IMG/VR virus record: IMGVR_UViG_2563366917_000005
Direction: 5' to 3' (one strand)
Origin: a virus
Taxonomy: Duplodnaviria; Heunggongvirae; Uroviricota; Caudoviricetes
DNA length: 19,775 bases
Position numbers and translations under genes: made by a program. Within the stretch, counting starts at the first letter, position 1. Every line of letters starts with the position of its first letter. Positions 1,926 through 19,775 of the stretch are shown in pieces. The notes beneath the pieces were generated by a model. The model was given only the letters and a program-made list of their open reading frames with translations, had not been told where the DNA came from and ran no database searches.

Positions 1926-2309
1926 ATGGCAACAAAAGAAGAAAATCTGAATCGTCTTCGTCAACTGGCTGGCCTGCTGGGGCGCGAGGCGGATATGTCG
2001 GGGAGTGCTGCGGATATTGCGCAACGTGTGTCTGAGTGGGAAGAGGAGCTTGCTGTTTCCCCGGAGGGCATTATGCACTCTGATGAGAGCGGGGCTGATC
2101 AAAATCACACAGACGATGGTGAGCAGTTGAACAACACGGATGCTCCGGATGATGTTAAAGCCGTCCGGGTACGGAAGTGCCTGCAAGTAATGGGGTATTG
2201 CCCGGAGACAGGTCGTCCCGTTGAGCTGGCGTTACGGGGTATGCGTGTTCTGGTGCCATCATCACTGGCAACGGCCATGATACAGCACGGAACGGCTGAA
2301 TATGCGTGA
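1926..2309 (+). CDS. FI: DNA-packaging / head assembly protein, gpFI-like
   Basis: Position after E; RBS aggagg at 1914-1919; N-terminus MATKEENLNRLRQL... and acidic middle resemble lambda FI. Start chosen at the ATG downstream of the hairpin rather than the ORF-track start 1878. Confidence 0.8.
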   Translation: MATKEENLNRLRQLAGLLGREADMSGSAADIAQRVSEWEEELAVSPEGIMHSDESGADQNHTDDGEQLNNTDAPDDVKAVRVRKCLQVMGYCPETGRPVELALRGMRVLVPSSLATAMIQHGTAEYA

Positions 2310-2655
2310 TTTTCAGAATGCCTTTGATGCTGCCCTCGCCGGGGTAGACAGTACGATCGTTGAAGTGATGGGACTCTGTGCGCAGTTCACCTCGGGGGCA
2401 CAGTGTGGCAGCGAAGTTCAGGGGGTTTTTGACGATCCGGAGTCGCTGGGGGTTGCCGGTGGCGGGGTCCGTATTGAAGGAAGCTGCCCGTCATTATTTG
2501 TGCGGACGGATACGGTTCGTGCCGTGCGGCGTGGTGACACGCTGACCATTAATGGTGAGACATTCTGGGTGGATCGTGTTTCTCCGGATGACGGGGGCAG
2601 CTGTTATCTCTGGCTCAACCGTGGGCAACCACCCGCAGTTAACCGGCGACGATAA
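2302..2655 (+). CDS. FII: Head-tail joining protein, gpFII-like
   Basis: 117 aa; GVFDDPE, PSLFVRTD, RRGDTLTI, FWVDRVSPDDGGSC.LWL.RG.PPAVNRRR match lambda FII by recollection; overlaps the FI stop. Confidence 0.9.
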   Translation: MRDFQNAFDAALAGVDSTIVEVMGLCAQFTSGAQCGSEVQGVFDDPESLGVAGGGVRIEGSCPSLFVRTDTVRAVRRGDTLTINGETFWVDRVSPDDGGSCYLWLNRGQPPAVNRRR

Positions 2656-2669
2656 ACGCAGGGTGAATT

Positions 2670-3245
2670 ATGGCGATAAAAGGGCTTGATCAGGCGATTG
2701 ACAATCTGAGCCGGGTTCGTAAAAACGCCATTCCGGCTGCTTCTGCAATGACCATTAACCGCGTGGCCATAACGGCGATTAATCAGTCTTCGTCACAGGT
2801 TGCCCGGGAAACCAGGGTGAGACGGAAACTGGTAAAGGAACGGTCCAGACTGAAACGGGCGACGGTCAGAAATCCGAATGCCAGAATTATCGTTAACCGC
2901 GGTGATCTCCCTGTGATTAAGCTGGGGATCAGAATGCTGGGGCGTCGTCCGGACAGCATACTCAAAGCCGGTCAGCATCGTTATCAGCGGGCATTTATCC
3001 AGCGATTAAATAATGGGCGCTGGCATGTTATGCAACGTCTTCCCCAGGCCAGATATGAGGAGGGCAATGACGACAAGGGAAGGAAAAAGCGTAATCGCCT
3101 TCCCATTCAGGTGGTGAAAATCCCGATGGCGGCCCCACTGAAACAGGCATTTGATGAGAATGTTGACCGTATCCGGCGTGAACGCCTGCCTAAAGAACTG
3201 GCATACGCGCTGAAACAACAACTGAGGATTGCGATAAAACGATGA
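2670..3245 (+). CDS. Z: Tail completion protein, gpZ-like
   Basis: 191 aa; MAIKGL.QA..NLSR, QVARETRVRRKLVKER.RLKRATV, NRGDLPVIKLG, NGRWHVMQR, ERIRRERLPKEL as in lambda Z. Confidence 0.9.
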   Translation: MAIKGLDQAIDNLSRVRKNAIPAASAMTINRVAITAINQSSSQVARETRVRRKLVKERSRLKRATVRNPNARIIVNRGDLPVIKLGIRMLGRRPDSILKAGQHRYQRAFIQRLNNGRWHVMQRLPQARYEEGNDDKGRKKRNRLPIQVVKIPMAAPLKQAFDENVDRIRRERLPKELAYALKQQLRIAIKR

Positions 3246-3637
3246 AACACACTGACATTCGTGCCGCAGTGCTGGATGCACTCGAGCAGCATGAACACGG
3301 GGCGACGCTGTTTGATGGTCGCCCCGTTGTTTTTGACGAAGAGGATTTTCCTGCGATCGCGGTTTATCTGACGGATGCAGAGTATACCGGTGAAGAGCTG
3401 GATGCAGATACCTGGCGGGCCACGCTGCATATTGAGGTGTTTTTACCGGCACAGGTACCGGATTCAGAGCTTGATCAGTGGATGGAAAGCCGGATTTACC
3501 CGGCGATGACCGCGATCCCGGCACTGGCAGGACTGATTACCACGATGGTTACGCAGGGCTATGAGTATCGTCGTGATGACGATATGGCGTTATGGAGTTC
3601 TGCAGATCTGACTTATTCCATTACATACGAGATGTGA
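3242..3637 (+). CDS. U: Tail tube terminator protein, gpU-like
   Basis: 131 aa; [63 protein letters not shown]; ATGA overlap with Z. Confidence 0.9.
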
Positions 3638-3644
3638 GGACGAT

Positions 3645-4397
3645 ATGGCAACACCAAATCCCCTTGAGCCGGTAAAAGGTGCCGGTACCACTCTGTGGGT
3701 TTACAACGGCAAGGGTGATGCTTATGCAAACCCGTTGTCAGACGATGACTGGCAGCGACTGGCTAAGGTGAAGGATCTGACGCCGGGCGAGATGACGGCA
3801 GAATCCTACGATGATAACTACCTGGATGATGAAGACGCGGACTGGACCGCGACCGGGCAGGGGCAGAAATCTGCAGGTGATACCAGTTTTACGCTGGCCT
3901 GGAAACCGGGAGAGGAAGGCCAGAAAGGGCTTATAGGCTGGTTTGAAAGCGGCGATGTCCGGGCCTATAAAATCCGTTTTCCGAATGGCACGGTGGATGT
4001 GTTTCGTGGCTGGGTCAGCAGTATCGGTAAGGCCGTGACGGCGAAAGAAGTGATCACCCGCACGGTGAAAGTCACTAACGTGGGTAAACCTTCTGTAGCG
4101 GAAGAACGCAGCAAAATTACGCCGGTCAGTGCGATTAAGGTGACGCCGACATCCGGTACGGTGGCAAAAGGGAAAACAACCACCCTGACGGTTTCTTTTG
4201 AGCCGGAAAGTGCAACCGACAAGACGTTCAGAGCGGTTTCCGCCGATCCGTCGAAAGCCACCATTAGTGTGAAAGATATGACAATTACGGTAAACGGCGT
4301 GGCGACAGGTAAGGTGCAGATCCCTGTGGTGAGCGGAAATGGTCAGTTCGCCGCAGTGGCTGAAGTCACCGTTACTGAAGCGGGCGCTGCAGGGTAA
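3645..4397 (+). CDS. V: Major tail tube protein, gpV-like, with C-terminal Ig-like domain
   Basis: 250 aa; [105 protein letters not shown]; the C-terminal ~90 aa look like a Big_2-type Ig-like fold. Confidence 0.95.
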
Positions 4398-4410
4398 ACG
4401 GAGGTAATAC

Positions 4411-4842
4411 ATGTTTCTGAAAACAGAACAATTTGAATATAACGGTGTGTCTGTCACGCTTTCCGAATTGTCTGCGCTGCAGCGTATCGAGCATCTTGCC
4501 CTCCTGAAACGGCGTGCAGAACAGGCAGAATCCTGCGGCAACCTGCAGGTAAGCGTGGAAGATCTCGTCAGAACCGGCGCGTTTCTGGTGGCGATGTCCC
4601 TGTGGCATAACCATCCACAGAAAACGCAGTCACCGTCAATGAATGAGGCCGTGATGAAGATAGAGCAGGAAGTGCTCACCACCTGGCCTGCCGATGCCAT
4701 TGCCCGGGCGGAAGACGTGGTGTTGTGCCTGTCCGGGATGATCGAAGCTGTTCGTCCGGATACTGATATTACTGAAGTGGCGAAAAATAACACGCTGACT
4801 GATGATGATTTTTCTGCGGGAAAGTCTTCGACGGCGAGCTGA
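4411..4842 (+). CDS. G: Tail assembly chaperone, gpG-like
   Basis: 143 aa; MFLKTE.FE.NGV.VTLSELSALQRIEHLAL.KR.AEQAES, AFLVAMSLWHNHPQKTQ.PSMNEA as in lambda G. Confidence 0.9.
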   Translation: MFLKTEQFEYNGVSVTLSELSALQRIEHLALLKRRAEQAESCGNLQVSVEDLVRTGAFLVAMSLWHNHPQKTQSPSMNEAVMKIEQEVLTTWPADAIARAEDVVLCLSGMIEAVRPDTDITEVAKNNTLTDDDFSAGKSSTAS

Positions 4843-5282: not shown

Positions 5283-7836
5283 TCTTGTTATTGACCTGAG
5301 TCTGGATGCTGTCCGTTTCGATGAGCAGATGAGCCGGGTAAGGCGTCATTTTTCAGGTCTGGATACCGACGCCAGAAAAACCGCCAGTGCTGTTGAACAG
5401 GGCCTGAGCCGCCAGGCGCTGGCTGCACAAAAAGCCGGGATTTCCGTCGGGCAGTATAAAGCGGCCATGCGAACCCTGCCCGCACAGTTTACGGATATCG
5501 CCACGCAGCTTGCCGGTGGTCAGAATCCCTGGCTGATCCTGCTGCAACAGGGCGGTCAGGTGAAGGACTCCTTCGGCGGGATGATCCCCATGTTCAGGGG
5601 GCTCGCCGGTGCGATCACCCTGCCGATGGTCGGGGTCACCTCGCTGGCGGTGGCGACAGGTGCGCTGGTGTACGCCTGGTACCAGGGAGATTCCACGCTT
5701 TCAGCGTTTAATAAAACCCTGGTTCTTTCCGGTAATCAGTCCGGACTGACTGCCGATCGTATGCTGACTCTCTCAAGAGCCGGGCAGGCAGCAGGGCTGA
5801 CGTTTAACCAGGCGAGAGAGTCACTGGCAGCCCTGGTGAATGCCGGTGTGCGTGGTGGTGAACAGTTTGATGCCATCAACCAGAGTGTCGCGCGTTTTGC
5901 GTCTGCATCCGGTGTGGAGGTGGATAAAGTCGCTGAAGCCTTCGGGAAGCTGACCACTGACCCGACGTCGGGACTGATGGCGATGGCGCGCCAGTTCCGT
6001 AACGTGACGGCAGAGCAGATTGCGTATGTTGCACAGCTGCAGCGTTCCGGAGACGAGGCCGGTGCATTGCAGGCGGCGAACGATATCGCCACGAAAGGCT
6101 TTGATGAGCAGACCCGTCGCCTGAAAGAAAACATGGGAACACTGGAGACCTGGGCGGATAAAACAGGGAAGGCATTCAAATCGATGTGGGATGCCATTCT
6201 GGATATCGGTCGTCCGGAATCCTCAGCGGATATGCTCGCCAGTGCGCAGAAGGCATTTGATGAGGCGGATAAAAAATGGCAGTGGTACCAGAGCCGGAGC
6301 CAGCGCCGGGGAAAAACCGCCTCTTTTCGTGCCAACCTTCAGGGCGCATGGGATGACCGGGAAAATGCCCGTCTGGGTCTGGCAGCGGCAACGCTGCAGT
6401 CGGATATGGAAAAAGCCGGTGAACTGGCGGCAAGGGACAGGGCTGAGCGTGAGTCGTCACAGCTGAAGTATACCGGAGAGGCGCAGAAGGCGTATGAGCG
6501 CCTGCTGACGCCACTGGAGAAATATACCGCCCGGCAGGAAGAGCTGAATAAGGCCCTGAAAGACGGGAAAATCCTGCAGGCGGATTACAACACGCTGATG
6601 GCGTCGGCAAAAAAGGATTATGAGTCGACGCAGAAAAAGCCGTCCGGTGTGAAGGTGTCTGCCGGTGAGCGCCAGGAAGACCAGGCGCATGCAGCCCTGC
6701 TGGCGCTTGAAACCGAGCTCAGGACGCTGGAAAAACACAGCGGTGTGAATGAGAAAATCAGCCAGCAGCGCCGGGATTTATGGGAAGCGGAAAATCAGTA
6801 TGTGGTCCTGAAAGAGGCCGCCACGAAACGGCAGTTATCTGAGCAGGAAAAATCCCTGCTGGCCCATGAGAAAGAGACGCTGGAGTACAAACGCCAGCTG
6901 GCTGAGCTGGGCGACAAGATTGAACACCAGAAACGGCTGAATGAGCTGGCACAGCAGGCGGCGCGGTTTGAACAGCAGCAGAGCGCGAAGCAGGCGGCAA
7001 TCAGCGCAAAAGCCCGCGGACTCACCGACCGTCAGGCGCAGCGGGAGTCGGAAGAGCAGCGCCTTCGTGAGGTGTACGGTGATAATCCGGCTGCGCTGGC
7101 GAAGGCCACATCTGCACTGAAGAACACCTGGTCTGCGGAGGAGCAGCTTCGTGGAAGCTGGATGGCCGGGATGAAGTCCGGCTGGGGCGAGTGGGCGGAA
7201 AGTGCGACGGACAGTTTTTCGCAGGTTAAAAACGCGGCCACGCAGACCTTTGACGGTATTGCACAGAATATGGCAGCGATGCTGACCGGCAGCGAACAGA
7301 ACTGGCGTGGTTTCACCCGTTCTGTGCTGTCCATGCTGACAGAGATTTTTCTGAAGCAGGCGATGGTGGGGATAGTCGGGAGTATCGGCAGCGCCATTGG
7401 CGGGGCTGTTGGTGGCGGCGCATCCGCGTCAGGCGGTACAGCCATTCAGGCTGCGGCGGCGAACTTCCATTTCGCGACCGGGAGATTTACGGGGACGGGG
7501 GGTAAATATGAACCTGCGGGGATTGTTCATCGCGGGGAGTTTGTCTTCACGAAGGAGGCGACCAGCCGGATTGGTGTCGGCAATCTGTACCGCCTGATGC
7601 GGGGCTATGCGGAAGGTGGTTATGTCGGCGGTGCCGGAAGTCCGGCGCAGATGCGGCGGGCGGAAGGCATTAATTTTAATCAGAACAATCACGTGGTGAT
7701 TCAGAACGACGGCCCCAACGGGCGGGCAGGGCCGCAGCTGATGAAAGCGGTGTATGAGATGGCCCGCAAGGGGGCACAGGATGAACTCCGGCTGCAGTTG
7801 CGTGATGGCGGTATGTTATCAGGGAGCGGTGGATGA
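5263..7836 (+). CDS. H: Tail tape measure protein, gpH-like
   Basis: 857 aa; long stretches near-identical to lambda H by recollection (VGDLV.DLSLDA.RFDEQM.RVRRHFSG, GGQVKDSFGGMIPMFRGLAGAITLPMVG, C-terminal GIVHRGEFVFTKEATSRIGVGNLYRLMRGYA); overlaps the T stop. Confidence 0.95.
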   Translation: MSQPVGDLVIDLSLDAVRFDEQMSRVRRHFSGLDTDARKTASAVEQGLSRQALAAQKAGISVGQYKAAMRTLPAQFTDIATQLAGGQNPWLILLQQGGQVKDSFGGMIPMFRGLAGAITLPMVGVTSLAVATGALVYAWYQGDSTLSAFNKTLVLSGNQSGLTADRMLTLSRAGQAAGLTFNQARESLAALVNAGVRGGEQFDAINQSVARFASASGVEVDKVAEAFGKLTTDPTSGLMAMARQFRNVTAEQIAYVAQLQRSGDEAGALQAANDIATKGFDEQTRRLKENMGTLETWADKTGKAFKSMWDAILDIGRPESSADMLASAQKAFDEADKKWQWYQSRSQRRGKTASFRANLQGAWDDRENARLGLAAATLQSDMEKAGELAARDRAERESSQLKYTGEAQKAYERLLTPLEKYTARQEELNKALKDGKILQADYNTLMASAKKDYESTQKKPSGVKVSAGERQEDQAHAALLALETELRTLEKHSGVNEKISQQRRDLWEAENQYVVLKEAATKRQLSEQEKSLLAHEKETLEYKRQLAELGDKIEHQKRLNELAQQAARFEQQQSAKQAAISAKARGLTDRQAQRESEEQRLREVYGDNPAALAKATSALKNTWSAEEQLRGSWMAGMKSGWGEWAESATDSFSQVKNAATQTFDGIAQNMAAMLTGSEQNWRGFTRSVLSMLTEIFLKQAMVGIVGSIGSAIGGAVGGGASASGGTAIQAAAANFHFATGRFTGTGGKYEPAGIVHRGEFVFTKEATSRIGVGNLYRLMRGYAEGGYVGGAGSPAQMRRAEGINFNQNNHVVIQNDGPNGRAGPQLMKAVYEMARKGAQDELRLQLRDGGMLSGSGG

Positions 7837-14827: not shown

Positions 14828-17800
14828 ATGACAGTAAAAATTTCTGGCGTGCTTAAAGATGGCACAGGAAAACCAGTACAGAACTGCACCATTGTGCTGA
14901 AGGCCAGACGAACCAGCAGCACGGTGGTGGTGAACACGGTGGCCTCTGAAAATCCGGATGAAGCCGGACGTTACAGCATGGATGTTGAGCATGGTCAGTA
15001 CAGCGTCACCCTGCTGGTTGAAGGTTTTCCGCCTTCACATGCCGGGACCATTACCGTCTATGAAGGTTCCAGATCAGGTACGCTGAATGATTTTCTCGGT
15101 GCCATGACGGAGGATGATGTCCGACCGGAGGCACTGCGCCGCTTTGAGCAGATGGTGGAAGAGGTGTCACGTAACGCCTCCGCGGTTGCACAGAATACGG
15201 CAGCCGCGAAAAAATCAGCCAGCGATGCCAGTGCATCAGCCAGCGAGGCGGCAACTCATGCAACCGATGCTGCAGCCTCAGCACGTGCCGCCAGCACGTC
15301 AGCCGGACAGGCCGCGTCGTCGGCTCAGTCAGCGTCTTCCAGCGCAGGAACGGCATCGACAAAGACCCGTGAAGCAGCAAAAAGTGCTGCTGCTGCTGCA
15401 GAGTCATCAAAAAGCGCGGCAGCTACCAGCGCCAGTGCCGCGAAAACGTCAGAAACGAATGCCGCAGCATCACAAAAATCGGCAGCCACTTCTGCATCCA
15501 CAGCGACCACGAAGGCGTCAGAAGCTGCCACCTCGGCACGGGGTGCGGCGACCTCAAAAGAGGCAGCGAAATCTTCAGAAACGAATGCATCATCAAGTGC
15601 CAGTAGTGCAGCTTCCTCGGCAACGGCGGCAGGAAATTCCGCGAAGGCGGCAAAAACGTCCGAGACGAACGCTAAGTCTTCTGAAACAGCAGCGGGACAG
15701 AGCGCCTCAGCTGCGGCAGGTTCAAAAACAGCGGCTGCATTATCTGCCAGTGCCGCGTCAACAAGTGCCGGGCAGGCCTCAGCCAGTGCCACCGCCGCCG
15801 GAAAATCGGCAGAAAGCGCCGCATCATCCGCTTCAACAGCCACAACGAAGGCTGGCAAAGCCACTGAGCAAGCCACTGCAGCAGCGAGGTCTGCTTCTGC
15901 AGCAAAAACCTCTGAAACAAATGCAAAGACTTCAGCAGACAATGCTGCTTCCTCTAAGGCGGCAGCCGCATCGTCAGCCAGTTCAGCGGCGTCATCGGCA
16001 TCATCTGCGTCTGCTTCAAAAGATGAGGCGACCAGACAAGCGTCAGCAGCGAAAGGTAGTGCCACGACAGCAACAACGAAAGCATCAGAGGCGGCAGGCA
16101 GTGCGACGGCTGCATCTCAGAGCAAAGTTGCTGCTGAATCCGCGGCAACGCGCGCCGAGACAGCAGCAAAACGGGCAGAGGATATTGCATCCGCCGTGGC
16201 GCTGGAGGATGCGAGCACGACGAAAAAGGGGATAGTACAGCTCAGCAGTGCAACAAACAGCACCAGTGAAAAGCTGGCGGCAACGCCAAAGGCAGTTAAA
16301 ACTGTTAAAGATAGTTCAGTTCAAAAAACTGGCGACACAATGGGAGGGCAGTTAAAAATCAGCACGATAAATGCTCTTCGAATATTCAACCAAGCCTTTG
16401 GCCTTATTTTTAGGCGTTCCGAAGATCATCTTCATCTTATTCCGACTAATGAAGGGGAGGGGGAAAATGGAGACATCGGTTCATTAAGACCATTCTCTAT
16501 AAACTTAAGATCAGGGTTGGTGTCCATCGGTAATGGACTAAAAGTTGGTGGTAGTGTTACTGGTAATTTGACCGGAAACGCAGATACTGCGACCAAGATC
16601 AAGACAGCACGTAAGATTGGGGGCGTGGCATTTGATGGATCGGCAGATATCAACTTGCCTGGAGTCAACGCTACCGGTAATCAAAACACTACAGGTAATG
16701 CTGCGACCGCCACGAAACTTCAGGCAGCCAGAACGATTAACGGTGTGTCATTTGATGGTAGTGCAAATATCACATTGACCCCTTCAAATATTGGGGCATT
16801 GGCATTAACTGGAGGGACTCTTTCAGGTGGTTTAACTGCTGCTGGTGAGGTTATTTCAAGGTCAGCAAATGGTCTGCGTATTGCCTATGGCAACTATGGA
16901 TTCTTTATCCGAAATGATGGATCAAACACATATTTTATGTTGACAGATTCGGGTAACAGTCTTGGTACGCACAATAGCTTAAGGCCGTTTATAATTAGTA
17001 ACCATACTGGCAATGTTACAATTGCAACTAAATTAAACGCGAGTGGTGGTATCACTGGATCTTTATCGGGTAATGCAAGCACAGCAACCAAATTGCAAAC
17101 TGCAAGGACAATTAACGGCGTAAAATTTGACGGCTCGGCAAATATTGAAGCGTTTCCGCCAGGTGTTCCGCTGCCGTGGCCATCAGATACACCACCTGCA
17201 GGTTATGCAATCATGCAGGGGCAGACGTTTGATAAGGCAGCATATCCGAAACTGGCTATTGCCTATCCTTCAGGTGTTATTCCAGATATGCGCGGCTGGA
17301 CAATCAAGGGCAAACCCGCCAGTGGCCGGGCCGTATTGTCTCAGGAACAGGACGGCATTAAATCGCACACCCACAGCGCCAGCGCATCCAGTACGGATTT
17401 GGGGACGAAAACCACATCGTCGTTTGATTACGGCACTAAATCCACGAATAACACCGGGGCGCATACGCACAGTCTGAGTGGCTCTACGGGGTCTGCCGGT
17501 GTTCATACTCATGGTAATGGTATTCGTTGGCCAGGAGGCGGCGGTTCTGCGTTAGCATTTTATGATGGCGGTGGGTTCACTTATGTCCAGAATTCACAGT
17601 ATCAAGTAAGCCCGGAGACTTCTTCCTATAGATCGTATTATCAACGTATTCAGACACAGTCAGCAGGTGCTCATACCCACTCGCTGTCTGGTACTGCAGC
17701 AAGTTCTGGCGCACATGCACATACTGTAGGTATTGGTGCGCATACGCACTCCGTTGCGATTGGTTCACATGGACACACCATCACCGTTAACGCTGCGGGT

Positions 17801-17857
17801 AACGCGGAAAACACCGTCAAAAACATCGCATTTAACTATATTGTGAGGCTTGCATAA
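14828..17857 (+). CDS. stf: Side tail fibre protein, Stf-like (1009 aa; expanded Ala/Ser shaft, central tail-fibre repeat module, His-motif C-terminal region)
   Basis: N-terminus [22 protein letters not shown]...[14 protein letters not shown] and C-terminus ...[31 protein letters not shown] match lambda Stf by recollection. It contains three copies of the TATK(I/L)(K/Q)TAR.I.GV.FDGSA.I repeat and several (S/A)H(T/A/G)H(S/T) motifs. Confidence 0.9.
15200..16200 (+). repeat. Imperfect in-frame tandem repeats encoding the Ala/Ser/Thr-rich Stf shaft (recurring AAKTSETNA and SASxA units)
   Basis: Recurring DNA units such as gcgaaaacgtcagaaacgaatgc and gcaaaaacctctgaaacaaatgc; GC-rich in both strands, which creates spurious long ORFs in other frames. 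Confidence 0.6.
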
Positions 17858-18441
17858 TGGCATTCAGAATGAGTGAACAAGCACGGACCATAAAAATTTA
17901 TAATCTGCTGGCCGGAACTAATGAATTTATTGGTGAAGGTGACGCATATATTCCGCCTCATACAGGTCTGCCAGCAAACAGTACCGATATTGCACCACCA
18001 GATATTCCTGCTGGCTTTGTGGCTGTTTTCAACAGTGATGAGGCATCGTGGCATCTCGTTGAAGACCATCGGGGTAAAACGGTTTATGACGTAGCGTCAG
18101 GGGACGAGTTATTTATTTCTGAACTCGGTCCGTTACCGGAAAATGTTACCTGGTTATCGCCGGAAGGGGAGTTTCAGAAGTGGAACGGCACAGCCTGGGT
18201 GAAGGATACGGAAGCAGAAAAACTGTTCCGGATCCGGGAGGCGGAAGAAACAAAAAACAACCTGATGCAGGTAGCCAGTGAGCATATTGCGCCGCTTCAG
18301 GATGCTGCAGATCTGGAAATTGCAACGGAGGAAGAAACCTCATTGCTGGAAGCCTGGAAAAAGTATCGGGTGTTGCTGAACCGTGTTGATACATCAACTG
18401 CACCTGATATTGAGTGGCCTACGAACCCTGTCAGGGAGTAA
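17857..18441 (+). CDS. tfa: Tail fibre assembly (chaperone) protein, Tfa-like
   Basis: 194 aa; [82 protein letters not shown]...[26 protein letters not shown], almost identical to lambda Tfa by recollection; 1 nt overlap with the stf stop. Confidence 0.9.
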
Positions 18442-18490
18442 TCATTGGGATTATGCCGCAGCACGTCTTAAGCAAGAACGTGCTGCGGTT
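18276..18490 (+). repeat. Direct repeat copy A (~215 bp): tfa 3' coding end plus downstream hairpin
   Basis: About 88% identical to 19326-19540 by eye alignment (cagtgagcatattgcgccgcttcaggatgctgcagatctggaaat... versus cagtgagtatattgcgccactgcaggatgctgtagatctggaaat...). Confidence 0.8.
18456..18488. terminator. Hairpin shared by the convergent tfa (+) and methyltransferase-like (-) genes (11 bp stem ccgcagcacgu/acgugcugcgg)
   Basis: Inverted repeat at 18456-18466 and 18478-18488 with an 11 nt loop; on the + strand uuggaugcuauuuuuu follows. It lies 15 nt after the tfa stop and 8 nt after the minus-strand gene stop. Confidence 0.45.
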
Positions 18491-18495
18491 GGATG

Positions 18496-19164
18496 CTATT
18501 TTTTCCCTGAAGCGGAAAACATTACTACAGTACCTTGAACCTTGGTTTTAACATTCTCGAAATGCTCTGAGAGTATATGTGTTAAGCCTTCTTCGGAATC
18601 TTTTGTGTTTGAAAAGATGCCTTTCTGATTGTAAATGCGCATCAGTTTTTGACCGAAGCTATTGTGCACAACTCCATCGCCAAGAATTGTGGCTCCGTAT
18701 AGAGTTCCATCGTCAGTTAAGGCCTGCGCCGCATTGCGTATTACACAGCTTTTTGTAGATATATTTCCAGGCAGGCAGTGAAGAAGGTAAAACATGGAAA
18801 TGGAATCAAATTGACCATGTAACGCCGCGGGATAAGGATCAAAAACATCATGGCTAATTTTATGTTTAATTTTTGATTCCCCAGCCCTTGTCGATGCCGC
18901 GTTCAGGCTAGCTTCGTTCAAATCCATTAAAGATATCAGACTACTCTCAGGTACGTGAGTAAGGTAAAACCCAGTTCCAACACCAATATCCAGATGGTTG
19001 TTACCTACATGTTCCAGAAAGTGTGGAAGAAGGTGTTCCTTTGTAGGACATCCCCATGCAAGCCGATTTGATACTCCCAAAACCCACCAGTCATAAAGCT
19101 TTAGGGTAAGTGGTGTGTAAATTTTAGCCCCATCATCTGTGTTTTTTTTCATTGATTTCACCAT
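18496..19164 (-). CDS. Class I SAM-dependent methyltransferase-like protein (small-molecule or protein type, not a DNA methyltransferase); low-GC cargo gene
   Basis: 222 aa; Rossmann motif I LDIGVGTGFY, an acidic residue at the end of beta-2 (LISLMDLNE), a motif II-like DSISMFYLLHCLPG, and an N-terminal YDWW...AWG segment. No DPPY/NPPY or C5-methyltransferase motifs. Visibly AT-richer than the tail genes. The true start may be the second ATG (19152), given the promoter position. The arrangement recalls the DLP12 tfaD-ybcY-tfaX locus of E. coli K-12, as far as I remember it. Confidence 0.6.
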   Translation of the reverse strand: MVKSMKKNTDDGAKIYTPLTLKLYDWWVLGVSNRLAWGCPTKEHLLPHFLEHVGNNHLDIGVGTGFYLTHVPESSLISLMDLNEASLNAASTRAGESKIKHKISHDVFDPYPAALHGQFDSISMFYLLHCLPGNISTKSCVIRNAAQALTDDGTLYGATILGDGVVHNSFGQKLMRIYNQKGIFSNTKDSEEGLTHILSEHFENVKTKVQGTVVMFSASGKK

Positions 19165-19193
19165 GTTATAGTTTTATTTGTGAATTAAATCAA
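19165..19193 (-). promoter_or_regulatory. Putative sigma70 promoter for the methyltransferase-like gene: -35 TTGATT, 17 nt spacer, -10 TATAAC (minus strand)
   Basis: Reverse complement of 19188-19193 is TTGATT and of 19165-19170 is TATAAC. The -10 sits immediately next to the first ATG, implying a leaderless or very short-leader mRNA or use of the second ATG. Confidence 0.3.
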
Positions 19194-19220
19194 TTATGGC
19201 GATGAATTACAAGGGGTTAA

Positions 19221-19490
19221 ATGCTGCCGCAGCATAGCGATATTGAAATAGCCTGGTATGCTTCGATACAGCAGGAGCCGAATGGCTGGAAGACCGTCAC
19301 CACACAGTTCTACATCCAGGAATTCAGTGAGTATATTGCGCCACTGCAGGATGCTGTAGATCTGGAAATCGCAACGGAGGAAGAAAGATCGTTGCTGGAG
19401 GCATGGAATAAATATCGGGTATTGTTGAATCGTGTTGATACATCAACTGCACCTGATATTGAGTGGCCTGCAAATCCTGTCAGGGAGTAA
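19221..19490 (+). CDS. Tfa C-terminal paralog (chimeric 89 aa ORF: unique 37 aa N-terminus fused to the conserved Tfa C-terminal ~50 aa); possibly a gene fragment
   Basis: C-terminal [52 protein letters not shown] matches the Tfa C-terminus; RBS aagggg sits 5 nt before the ATG; the N-terminal part has no counterpart in tfa. Confidence 0.5.
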
Positions 19491-19540
19491 TCATTGGGAT
19501 TATGCCGCAGACACGTCGTATGCAGGAACGTGCTGCGGTT
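19326..19540 (+). repeat. Direct repeat copy B (~215 bp): tfa-like 3' end plus hairpin
   Basis: See copy A. The hairpin stems are conserved (ccgcag(a)cacgu / acgugcugcgg) while the loops differ. Confidence 0.8.
19505..19538. terminator. Hairpin B downstream of the tfa paralog (stem conserved with hairpin A, one bulged A, different loop)
   Basis: Stem at 19505-19516 and 19528-19538; weak U-tract. Confidence 0.35.
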
Positions 19541-19604
19541 AGTTTGTGAGCTTTCGATAGTGGTTGTTATTTTTGCCCTTATTTGTTCCGGAGGCCATGG
19601 TTCA

Positions 19605-19775
19605 ATGGTCCGTCTGCCCCCTGTGGTGATGTCAGCAAAATCAGCCACTGCGCGAACCACAATAGCCCGGGAAGATGCTGAAGATCACCAGGTAAAGCTA
19701 TCAGCGCAGAAACTGGAAGAACTGCTCGCATCAATGGTTAAGGATGAGGTTGATCGCAATGATGGGATTTATTGA
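19605..19775 (+). CDS. Hypothetical small protein (56 aa; MVRLPPVVMSAKSATARTT...), stop codon at the window end
   Basis: ORF with ggagg at 19590-19594 about 10 nt upstream of the ATG at 19605; charged, helical-looking C-terminus. No family recognised. Confidence 0.3.
   Translation: MVRLPPVVMSAKSATARTTIAREDAEDHQVKLSAQKLEELLASMVKDEVDRNDGIY

Follow-up and report, generated by a model that had tools for sequence, protein, structure and literature searches.

In phage genomics the term moron, introduced by Hendrix, denotes an additional gene that brings a promoter and a terminator of its own and deviates in base composition, such as lom and bor of lambda; in prophages of enterohemorrhagic Escherichia coli (EHEC), cargo loci lie downstream of the tail-fibre genes. 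The closest described counterpart of the locus studied here is found in the DLP12 prophage of E. coli K-12, where the pseudogene ybcY (b0562) stands between tfaD and tfaX. Here we analyse a minus-strand gene for a class I S-adenosylmethionine (SAM)-dependent methyltransferase of the ybcY family, located between two direct repeats of tail fibre assembly (tfa) gene ends in the virus record IMGVR_UViG_2563366917_000005 (Caudoviricetes), a stretch of 19,775 nucleotides referred to below as the window.

The parallel with DLP12, drawn in an initial annotation of the sequence, is close. Gene order and promoter hexamers are the same in K-12, and the module (aligned to window 18003-19467) has 96.9% DNA identity to the window. 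In K-12 ybcY, the 2 nt corresponding to window 19149-19150 are deleted, which removes the G of the second ATG, so that the probable start codon is lost and the frame shifted (the 213 codons that follow are open); the gene in the window is intact. The K-12 right repeat ends early and has no hairpin, whereas that of the window includes it, and the K-12 copy is located at the argU/ompT site, in contrast to the window copy, which belongs to a prophage in ompW.

The gene is probably a moron lying between the tail-fibre genes and the attachment site, encoding a small-molecule or lipid methyltransferase that serves the lysogen and flanked by tfa repeats that recombine. The proposed unit would consist of the promoter, a Shine-Dalgarno sequence, the methyltransferase gene and a hairpin shared with the convergent tfa. 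Expressed in the lysogen, the enzyme would serve that state and not virion production, and the gene would be expected to benefit the host.

Cassette Loss and Probable Module Exchange at tfa Ends

The two repeats, of 226 and 227 nt, are identical in 201 of 227 aligned columns (88.5%); both contain the last 58 codons and stop of tfa (the C-terminus of the Caudo_TAP domain), followed by a hairpin. The initial annotation had correctly described direct repeats of about 88% identity made of tfa 3′ ends plus a hairpin, but the left copy begins at 18265, not at 18276, and about 58 codons are included instead of about 50. The right copy forms part of a tfaX-type open reading frame (ORF) that matches PHROG 2341 over its full length and Caudo_TAP at residues 31-86 (profile positions 75-130). 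By tblastn, its homology to tfa starts only at about residue 27 of 89, which identifies the right copy as a 5′-truncated tfa; the N-terminal part occurs only in cassette-carrying phages. On these two grounds a longer, different tfa was rejected as the origin of tfaX. The ATG of this ORF is preceded by AAGGGG, and its predicted product forms a phage protein family of its own (PHROG 2341).

Empty sites were sought with a synthetic junction joining window 18000-18490 to 19541-19775. The genomes of EFF60, 190693 and NMBU-W13E19 match this junction in one piece at 98.5-99.2% identity; they carry the same ompW prophage without the cassette, tfa being followed directly by the DUF4376 fragment. In all three, the single tfa end is of left-copy type on its 5′ side and of right-copy type on its 3′ side, including the right-type hairpin. 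The switch falls at alignment columns ~188-222 in EFF60 and ~143-181 in 190693, and the end in NMBU-W13E19 is a mosaic from about column 115. Chimeric ends with three different switch points point to loss by homologous recombination, the simplest reading being three separate deletions between the repeats, and they bear out the earlier suggestion of a recombination cassette at tfa 3′ ends. The diverged tfa 3′ ends serve as substrates of homologous recombination, in which crossing-over removes the cassette; gain by the reverse route is plausible, and transfer of the cassette from one lambdoid prophage to another probably relies on this homology as well. Several right-type bases in the left copy of K-12 suggest gene conversion.

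The module (truncated tfa end, hairpin, methyltransferase gene, spacer, truncated tfa end) is conserved in one piece; different fibre genes precede it, and it occurs at two integration sites. In addition to the K-12 copy, strain TL20 carries it from window position 18321 onward, behind a different fibre set, and E. coli O157:H7 F6667 carries tfa as far as 18420, a 2.8-kb block, and then the segment 18450-19445.

Two further insertions were observed at these prophage ends. The block in F6667, which occupies the DLP12/ompT site, contains genes for a manganese catalase and for yciE-, yciF- and yciG-like products (2295-4508 of the locus), and sits exactly between the tfa stop and the hairpin to the left of the methyltransferase gene (window 18420 and 18450). 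The chromosomal yciGFE genes adjoin the other integration site, ompW, which may hint that flanking host genes were captured by a phage. In the cassette-less prophage of NMBU-W13E19, a Rha-family regulator gene and one ash-family gene lie between the DUF4376 and ompW fragments (3854-4683 of that locus); this is a further variable cargo position at the same prophage end.

The Methyltransferase Gene and Its Product

The ORF for the methyltransferase is uninterrupted and encodes 222 aa; its G+C content is 41.3%, compared with 54.3% for the window, 48% for tfa, and a range of 48-52% for tfa and stf. The descriptions of the gene as intact and AT-rich thus hold, the former also in view of the purifying selection described below.

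The first ATG (19164) abuts the −10 hexamer of the candidate promoter and has no Shine-Dalgarno sequence; the second (19152, residue M5) is preceded by the Shine-Dalgarno sequence GGTGA at 19162-19158. An AAGGTG-N6-ATG arrangement is retained at the M5 position in homologues from Enterobacter and Klebsiella, and homologues outside the E. coli/Citrobacter group are mostly 217-220 aa long, 218 being the commonest length. The PHROG 2132 profile (E = 7e-157) aligns residues 5-222 with all of its 218 positions (1-218), and in strain CS18F, in which an ACG replaces the first ATG, the gene is annotated from M5. Together these features indicate that the true start is probably M5, giving a protein of 218 aa.

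Assignment of the product to the class I SAM-dependent methyltransferases, originally made from the motifs LDIGVGTGFY, LMDLNE and DSISMFYLLHCLPG, all of which are present, agrees with Pfam, a structure model and the structural neighbours of that model. Gathering scores are passed for Methyltransf_12 (37.4, against a threshold of 30), Methyltransf_23 and Methyltransf_11, and the model has the seven-stranded beta sheet with flanking helices of the class I fold. In motif I (LDIGVGTG, residues 58-65), G61, G63 and G65 are nearly invariant among 78 homologues; D81, at the end of strand E76-81 in the model, is invariant and takes the acidic ribose-binding position. The invariant residues listed outside the SAM-binding core are Y24, H57, D81, S121, H129, G157 and D189, and the nearly invariant ones include Y16, D25, W37, C39, C130, P132 and G133. 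DNA-methyltransferase motif IV ([DNS]PP[YFW]) was not found in the protein, as had been pointed out before, and no DNA-methyltransferase Pfam family was matched; an N6-adenine or N4-cytosine DNA methyltransferase was rejected because of the missing motif.

In the PDB, the sequences that match best belong to small-molecule enzymes (CysG/BelI, XrdM, NodS and JHAMT). Proteins named as similar comprise MM_2633, SpnL, PsmD, BelI/CysG, DhpI, phosphatidylethanolamine/phosphoethanolamine N-methyltransferases, Coq5, and juvenile hormone acid methyltransferase. The window protein does not reach the curated NCBIfam cut-offs of BioC, UbiE/MenG, UbiG, CmoA/CmoM, RsmC or RlmA, its only NCBIfam matches having E values of 0.002 or worse; the best NCBIfam match of ybcY-family members is to BioC (1.3e-10), which we take to be a generic match to the methyltransferase core. 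In the phosphoethanolamine methyltransferase of Plasmodium falciparum (PfPMT), Y19 and H132 are the catalytic pair. A profile comparison places Y16, Y24 and H129 of the window protein opposite Y19, Y27 and H132 of PfPMT (sequence checked against PDB 3uj6), an alignment that supports a putative mechanism in which His and Tyr assist the transfer to a nucleophile on a small substrate; it is no evidence that the substrate of PfPMT is shared. The window protein is only 15-21% identical to PfPMT (3uj6) and PmtA (8ys9), and it is not a member of the phosphatidylethanolamine/phosphoethanolamine N-methyltransferases, scoring 17.7 bits against the NCBIfam cut-off of 390 for the PmtA family. The substrate of the enzyme is most likely a small molecule or the head group of a lipid, and not DNA. 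It appears to be a cytoplasmic single-domain methyltransferase of 218 aa that would act alone, without partner genes. Fusion partners were considered as a hint to function and set aside as giving nothing usable: longer homologues have only unannotated extensions, apart from one P450 fusion and one RCC1 fusion, both probably eukaryotic gene models.

Candidate Expression Signals

The promoter-like TTGATT-17-TATAAC reported in the initial annotation is present upstream of the gene, and identical hexamers are listed for K-12 ybcY. Genomic SELEX (systematic evolution of ligands by exponential enrichment) with RpoD holoenzyme in K-12 identified the ybcY/tfaX spacer, to which the holoenzyme binds in vitro, as a constitutive-promoter site, listing these hexamers together with an H-NS site in the spacer, as well as a promoter candidate for tfaX (PMC3946193). 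The −35 hexamer lies within a conserved upstream element (TAATTGATTTAATTCAC). The part ATTGATTTAATT, which includes this hexamer, is invariant in the E. coli phage, Citrobacter, a Salmonella prophage (67% protein identity) and an Enterobacter chromosomal homologue (64%), and the surrounding non-coding DNA has diverged. The −35 element is thus kept across homologues of 64-89% identity in unrelated contexts; a variant, TTGATTTATTTTCA, occurs in the Klebsiella plasmid homologue, and a variant element also precedes a Salmonella homologue of 57% identity. Retention of the element in differing surroundings suggests that the gene travels with its own expression signals, which would include a sigma-70 promoter, probably silenced by H-NS. 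The upstream element also contains a near-palindrome, TGATTTAATTCA, in which 10 of 12 positions are symmetric. This sequence, which shares bases with the −35 hexamer, might serve a regulator as its operator and be more than a −35 box.

Both repeat hairpins are predicted to be stable in comparison with shuffled sequences (left, −28.5 kcal/mol, z = −5.2; right, −25.5 kcal/mol, z = −2.8). On the plus strand, the helix of the left hairpin ends directly before UUUUUU, a run that is the antisense of the last two Lys codons of the methyltransferase; with its stem directly preceding six U residues, this hairpin looks like a terminator for tfa and the late operon.

Distribution and Selection

Of 5426 complete E. 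coli genomes, 3844 (71%) carry the gene together with its upstream spacer, in up to four copies each; nucleotide identity is never below 95%. Integration was observed at two sites, ompW (the window and UTI89) and argU-ompT (DLP12). Intact copies with at least 97.7% protein identity are present in 14 phage genome records. Phage ev243 carries the methyltransferase gene, an alpha/beta hydrolase gene and ompT between the fibre genes and int, all opposite to the tail genes; in strain CS18F, nearly all of DLP12 is gone and only a truncated int, a truncated tfa, the intact methyltransferase gene and ompT are left. The 222-aa protein cluster has 6589 member sequences. In comparison with the homologue from Citrobacter (89% identical), the ratio of nonsynonymous to synonymous substitution rates (dN/dS) amounts to 0.23, and with that from Enterobacter (64%) to 0.12; these values place the gene under purifying selection.

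Counted in a collection with one genome per species, relatives of 40-70% identity occupy at least 600 loci in Enterobacterales, Pseudomonas, Dyella, Burkholderiales, Vibrio, Nostoc and actinobacteria. Each of these genes stands alone. No specific conserved neighbour was found in eight Pfam-annotated contexts or by clustering ORFs of at least 90 aa within 5 kb in 85 loci; only LysR, SDR and ABC ATPase families came up, which are expected by chance. DoxX was considered as a conserved partner and rejected, since it adjoins the gene in Erwinia (where it follows the homologue) and on one Klebsiella plasmid, with no recurrence. Several copies are on mobile DNA: in Aeromonas the gene is flanked by transposase genes, in Testudinibacter it closes an integrase island, in a Salmonella prophage it has int on one side and the tail genes on the other, and it is present in 603 Klebsiella plasmid records. 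Many homologues in Salmonella and Enterobacter have conserved chromosomal positions, and their surroundings lack mobile-element genes. Many Klebsiella virulence plasmids carry two homologues, one beside rmpC, peg-344 and iroN and another beside genes for an alpha-hydroxy-acid oxidase, DoxX and ZigA (phvKP4_1, 7010-7714; pCY814036-iucA, 6995-7648; coordinates within the respective loci).

Structure of the Region

Positions 17800-19775 of the window are 99.8-99.9% identical to many E. coli chromosomes, including those of UTI89 (99.8%), APEC O1, S88 and the type strain. The UTI89 counterpart is the right end of a complete lambda-like prophage in ompW, adjoining yciEFG and the trp operon, which encodes portal and capsid proteins, tape measure, J, Lom and a 1035-aa tail fibre protein, followed by tfa. 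The methyltransferase gene is the last intact gene before the prophage end; beyond it lie only a tfa fragment, a decayed DUF4376 fragment and an ompW fragment. The features of the region are collected in Table 1.

Table 1. Features around the methyltransferase gene, in window coordinates
Feature	Position	Strand	Basis or remarks
tfa, tail fibre assembly protein, 194 aa	17857..18441	+	Pfam Caudo_TAP, E 1.9e-44; same annotation in UTI89; 3′ end forms the left direct repeat
Left direct repeat	18265..18490	+	Last 58 tfa codons and stop, then hairpin
Stem-loop and six-T run	18446..18504	+	Lies where tfa and the methyltransferase gene converge
Class I SAM-dependent methyltransferase, ybcY family, PHROG 2132	18496..19164	-	ORF 222 aa; probable start 19152, 218 aa
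Promoter candidate: TTGATT (19193-19188), 17-nt spacer, TATAAC (19170-19165)	19165..19193	-	Sequence and K-12 RpoD genomic SELEX (PMC3946193)
Conserved upstream element, containing the −35 hexamer	19180..19196	-	Homologue comparison
Spacer between methyltransferase gene and right repeat	19165..19313		Travels with the methyltransferase gene
tfaX-type ORF, 89 aa	19221..19490	+	About 26-31 unrelated N-terminal residues joined to the C-terminal part of tfa
Right direct repeat	19314..19540	+	5′-truncated tfa end and hairpin
Decayed DUF4376/tail-fibre-related fragment	19587..19775 (runs off the window)	+	PHROG 1141/7703 matches; followed in UTI89 by an ompW fragment

Several other elements were noted in this part of the window. 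A 45-codon ORF (18414-18551, plus strand) across the hairpin and the 3′ end of the methyltransferase gene, annotated in RefSeq as a hypothetical protein (WP_001309429.1), is probably spurious. The tail fibre gene upstream of tfa (14828-17857, plus strand; 1009 aa) has an Ala/Ser/Thr-rich low-complexity stretch at window 15100-16250 (about residues 100-470), where a strong A-over-T skew and about 60% G+C yield several long spurious ORFs in other frames. The Rfam family RF02111 (IS009) has a full-length match at 18200-18398 (plus strand; 225 bits, gathering score 117). This match falls entirely inside the 3′ coding part of tfa and shares sequence with the left direct repeat; what the family describes is perhaps conserved tfa coding sequence and may not be a separate RNA gene. 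Upstream of the methyltransferase gene, a 27-codon fragment (19239-19319, minus strand) corresponds to a RefSeq annotation in strain TL20 as a DinI family protein, and the 89% homologue in Citrobacter freundii is followed directly by an intact DinI gene.

Alternative Explanations

A number of observations weigh against the interpretation of the gene as a moron whose product acts on a small molecule or lipid for the lysogen. K-12 has no working copy, which makes the gene dispensable under laboratory conditions. A generic promoter scan found no more promoter-like sites than expected from shuffled sequences, and it also left the TTGATT-17-TATAAC site unlisted because the −10 hexamer lacks T at position 6. 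A strong hairpin directly follows the methyltransferase stop codon, but no U run follows its stem on the minus strand. Part of the pattern in the chimeric empty alleles could stem from gene conversion among tfa alleles instead of simple deletion. The profile comparison with PfPMT (hhalign) reached a probability of only 71%, with D128 and the phosphate-binding C-terminal part unmatched, and the structural neighbours form a flat list without a specific family, in which the tRNA-modifying enzymes CmoA, Trm9 and METTL6 score nearly as well. It is this last result that leaves some room for a macromolecular substrate (tRNA, rRNA or protein), methylation of which might alter translation or modify a host or phage protein. 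We consider such a substrate unlikely: the profile matches cited for it are far below family cut-offs, the protein consists of a methyltransferase domain alone, lacks any domain for RNA binding or recognition and has an isoelectric point of 6.9-7.2, and its best PDB sequence matches are the small-molecule enzymes named above. That the gene is a functionless relic, hitch-hiking with the useful ompT or tail genes and silenced by H-NS, would fit the K-12 pseudogene, the truncated protein clusters (such as a 161-aa form with 445 member sequences), the viability of cassette-less prophages and the H-NS site in the promoter region (PMC3946193). It seems improbable given the dN/dS values of 0.12-0.23, the far larger full-length cluster, the intact copies in phage genomes, the retention of an intact gene in CS18F where almost all of DLP12 has disappeared, and the conservation of promoter element and Shine-Dalgarno sequence across genera.

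A role in phage defence or counter-defence, by methylation of a signalling nucleotide, a receptor component or a molecule of an incoming phage, is suggested by the position of the gene among cargo genes at the prophage end, and by its being a mobile single gene, widespread on phages, plasmids and islands. However, no model of PADLOC-DB 2.0 was matched significantly (the best was mad2; E = 0.012, 12.5 bits), and many relatives in Salmonella and Enterobacter reside at conserved chromosomal positions away from mobile-element genes; with the spread of the family to cyanobacteria and actinobacteria, these results make defence a doubtful candidate to which we attach low probability. Equally low is the probability we give to the two tfa ends being debris of an old tandem or invertible tail-fibre arrangement, as opposed to functional cassette boundaries. 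Extra tfa fragments are common in tail-fibre regions, a further decayed DUF4376 fragment follows, and the repeat copies are 11% diverged, so that their duplication is not recent; but no inverted repeats of 14 nt or longer occur in 17800-19775 and no invertase gene is annotated up to the prophage end in UTI89. An invertible tail-fibre segment like Mu G, P1 C or e14 P was accordingly rejected, since the repeats are direct and the invertase gene is missing. The three left/right switch points of the cassette-less alleles show that the repeats do recombine, and the same module recurs behind different fibre genes at two integration sites, which also argues against debris. A bolder version of the proposal would make the ybcY family a widely mobile single-gene trait whose substrate is a small molecule of relevance to the host or an amine of the membrane (phosphatidylethanolamine, for instance, being converted to its monomethyl form with the help of the Tyr/His pair) and which so affects host fitness, envelope or phage sensitivity, with the tfa 3′ end as a general handle for swapping cargo; we regard this version as speculative and rather improbable.

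Comparison with Known Systems

The gene is an intact copy of the annotated and very common ybcY of E. coli lambda-like prophages and in that sense already known; its novelty was overrated in the initial annotation, the protein being identical or nearly identical to a RefSeq protein in thousands of genomes. Cargo after the tail-fibre genes of lambdoid phages is likewise a familiar theme. Our search of the literature on ybcY, its protein, tfaX/tfaD and tail-fibre-linked methyltransferases found no functional study; a study of Hha reported a ybcY mutant without effect, yet ybcY is a pseudogene in K-12 anyway. The present analysis adds a probable true start, identification of the lesion in K-12, a conserved element upstream of the gene, a connection with the rmpA-adjacent gene of Klebsiella, and chimeric empty sites that show recombination at tfa ends. 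The gene is among the most widespread of the uncharacterised enzyme genes in E. coli prophages, and identification of its substrate would close an annotation gap in both E. coli and virulence plasmids. The empty sites provide a clean natural example of a conserved structural-gene end used as a recombination site for the loss, and probably the exchange, of prophage cargo; the mechanism is ordinary homologous recombination, and neither the enzyme nor the recombination point changes current understanding.

A related setting outside phages is that of the class I SAM-dependent methyltransferase encoded beside rmpADC, peg-344 or iroBCDN on virulence plasmids and ICEKp1 of hypervirulent Klebsiella pneumoniae, which has 63-66% amino acid identity over the full length. 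Like the window gene, it is a stand-alone gene carried as cargo of a mobile element, with a related upstream element and Shine-Dalgarno sequence; unlike the window gene, it is located on a plasmid or an integrative and conjugative element, not on a phage, and has no tfa repeats. It appears among the markers of hypermucoviscosity or liver abscess in association studies, none of which assigns it a function (PMC9846069, PMC9372168, PMC12525063). Its association with hypermucoviscosity follows from linkage to rmpA, so that this 64% homologue is a statistical marker of hypervirulence only through rmpA adjacency.

Among phage systems, the window gene resembles the lambdoid morons in lying after the tail-fibre genes, opposite to the late operon, with low G+C content and a candidate promoter of its own, and in being present or absent between otherwise matching prophages (it is missing from those of EFF60, 190693 and NMBU-W13E19). 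It differs from the morons and EHEC cargo named at the outset in two respects: its product is a cytoplasmic enzyme and not an envelope protein or a secreted effector, and the cargo is bracketed by direct repeats of the end of a phage structural gene, which are shown by the loss alleles to recombine.

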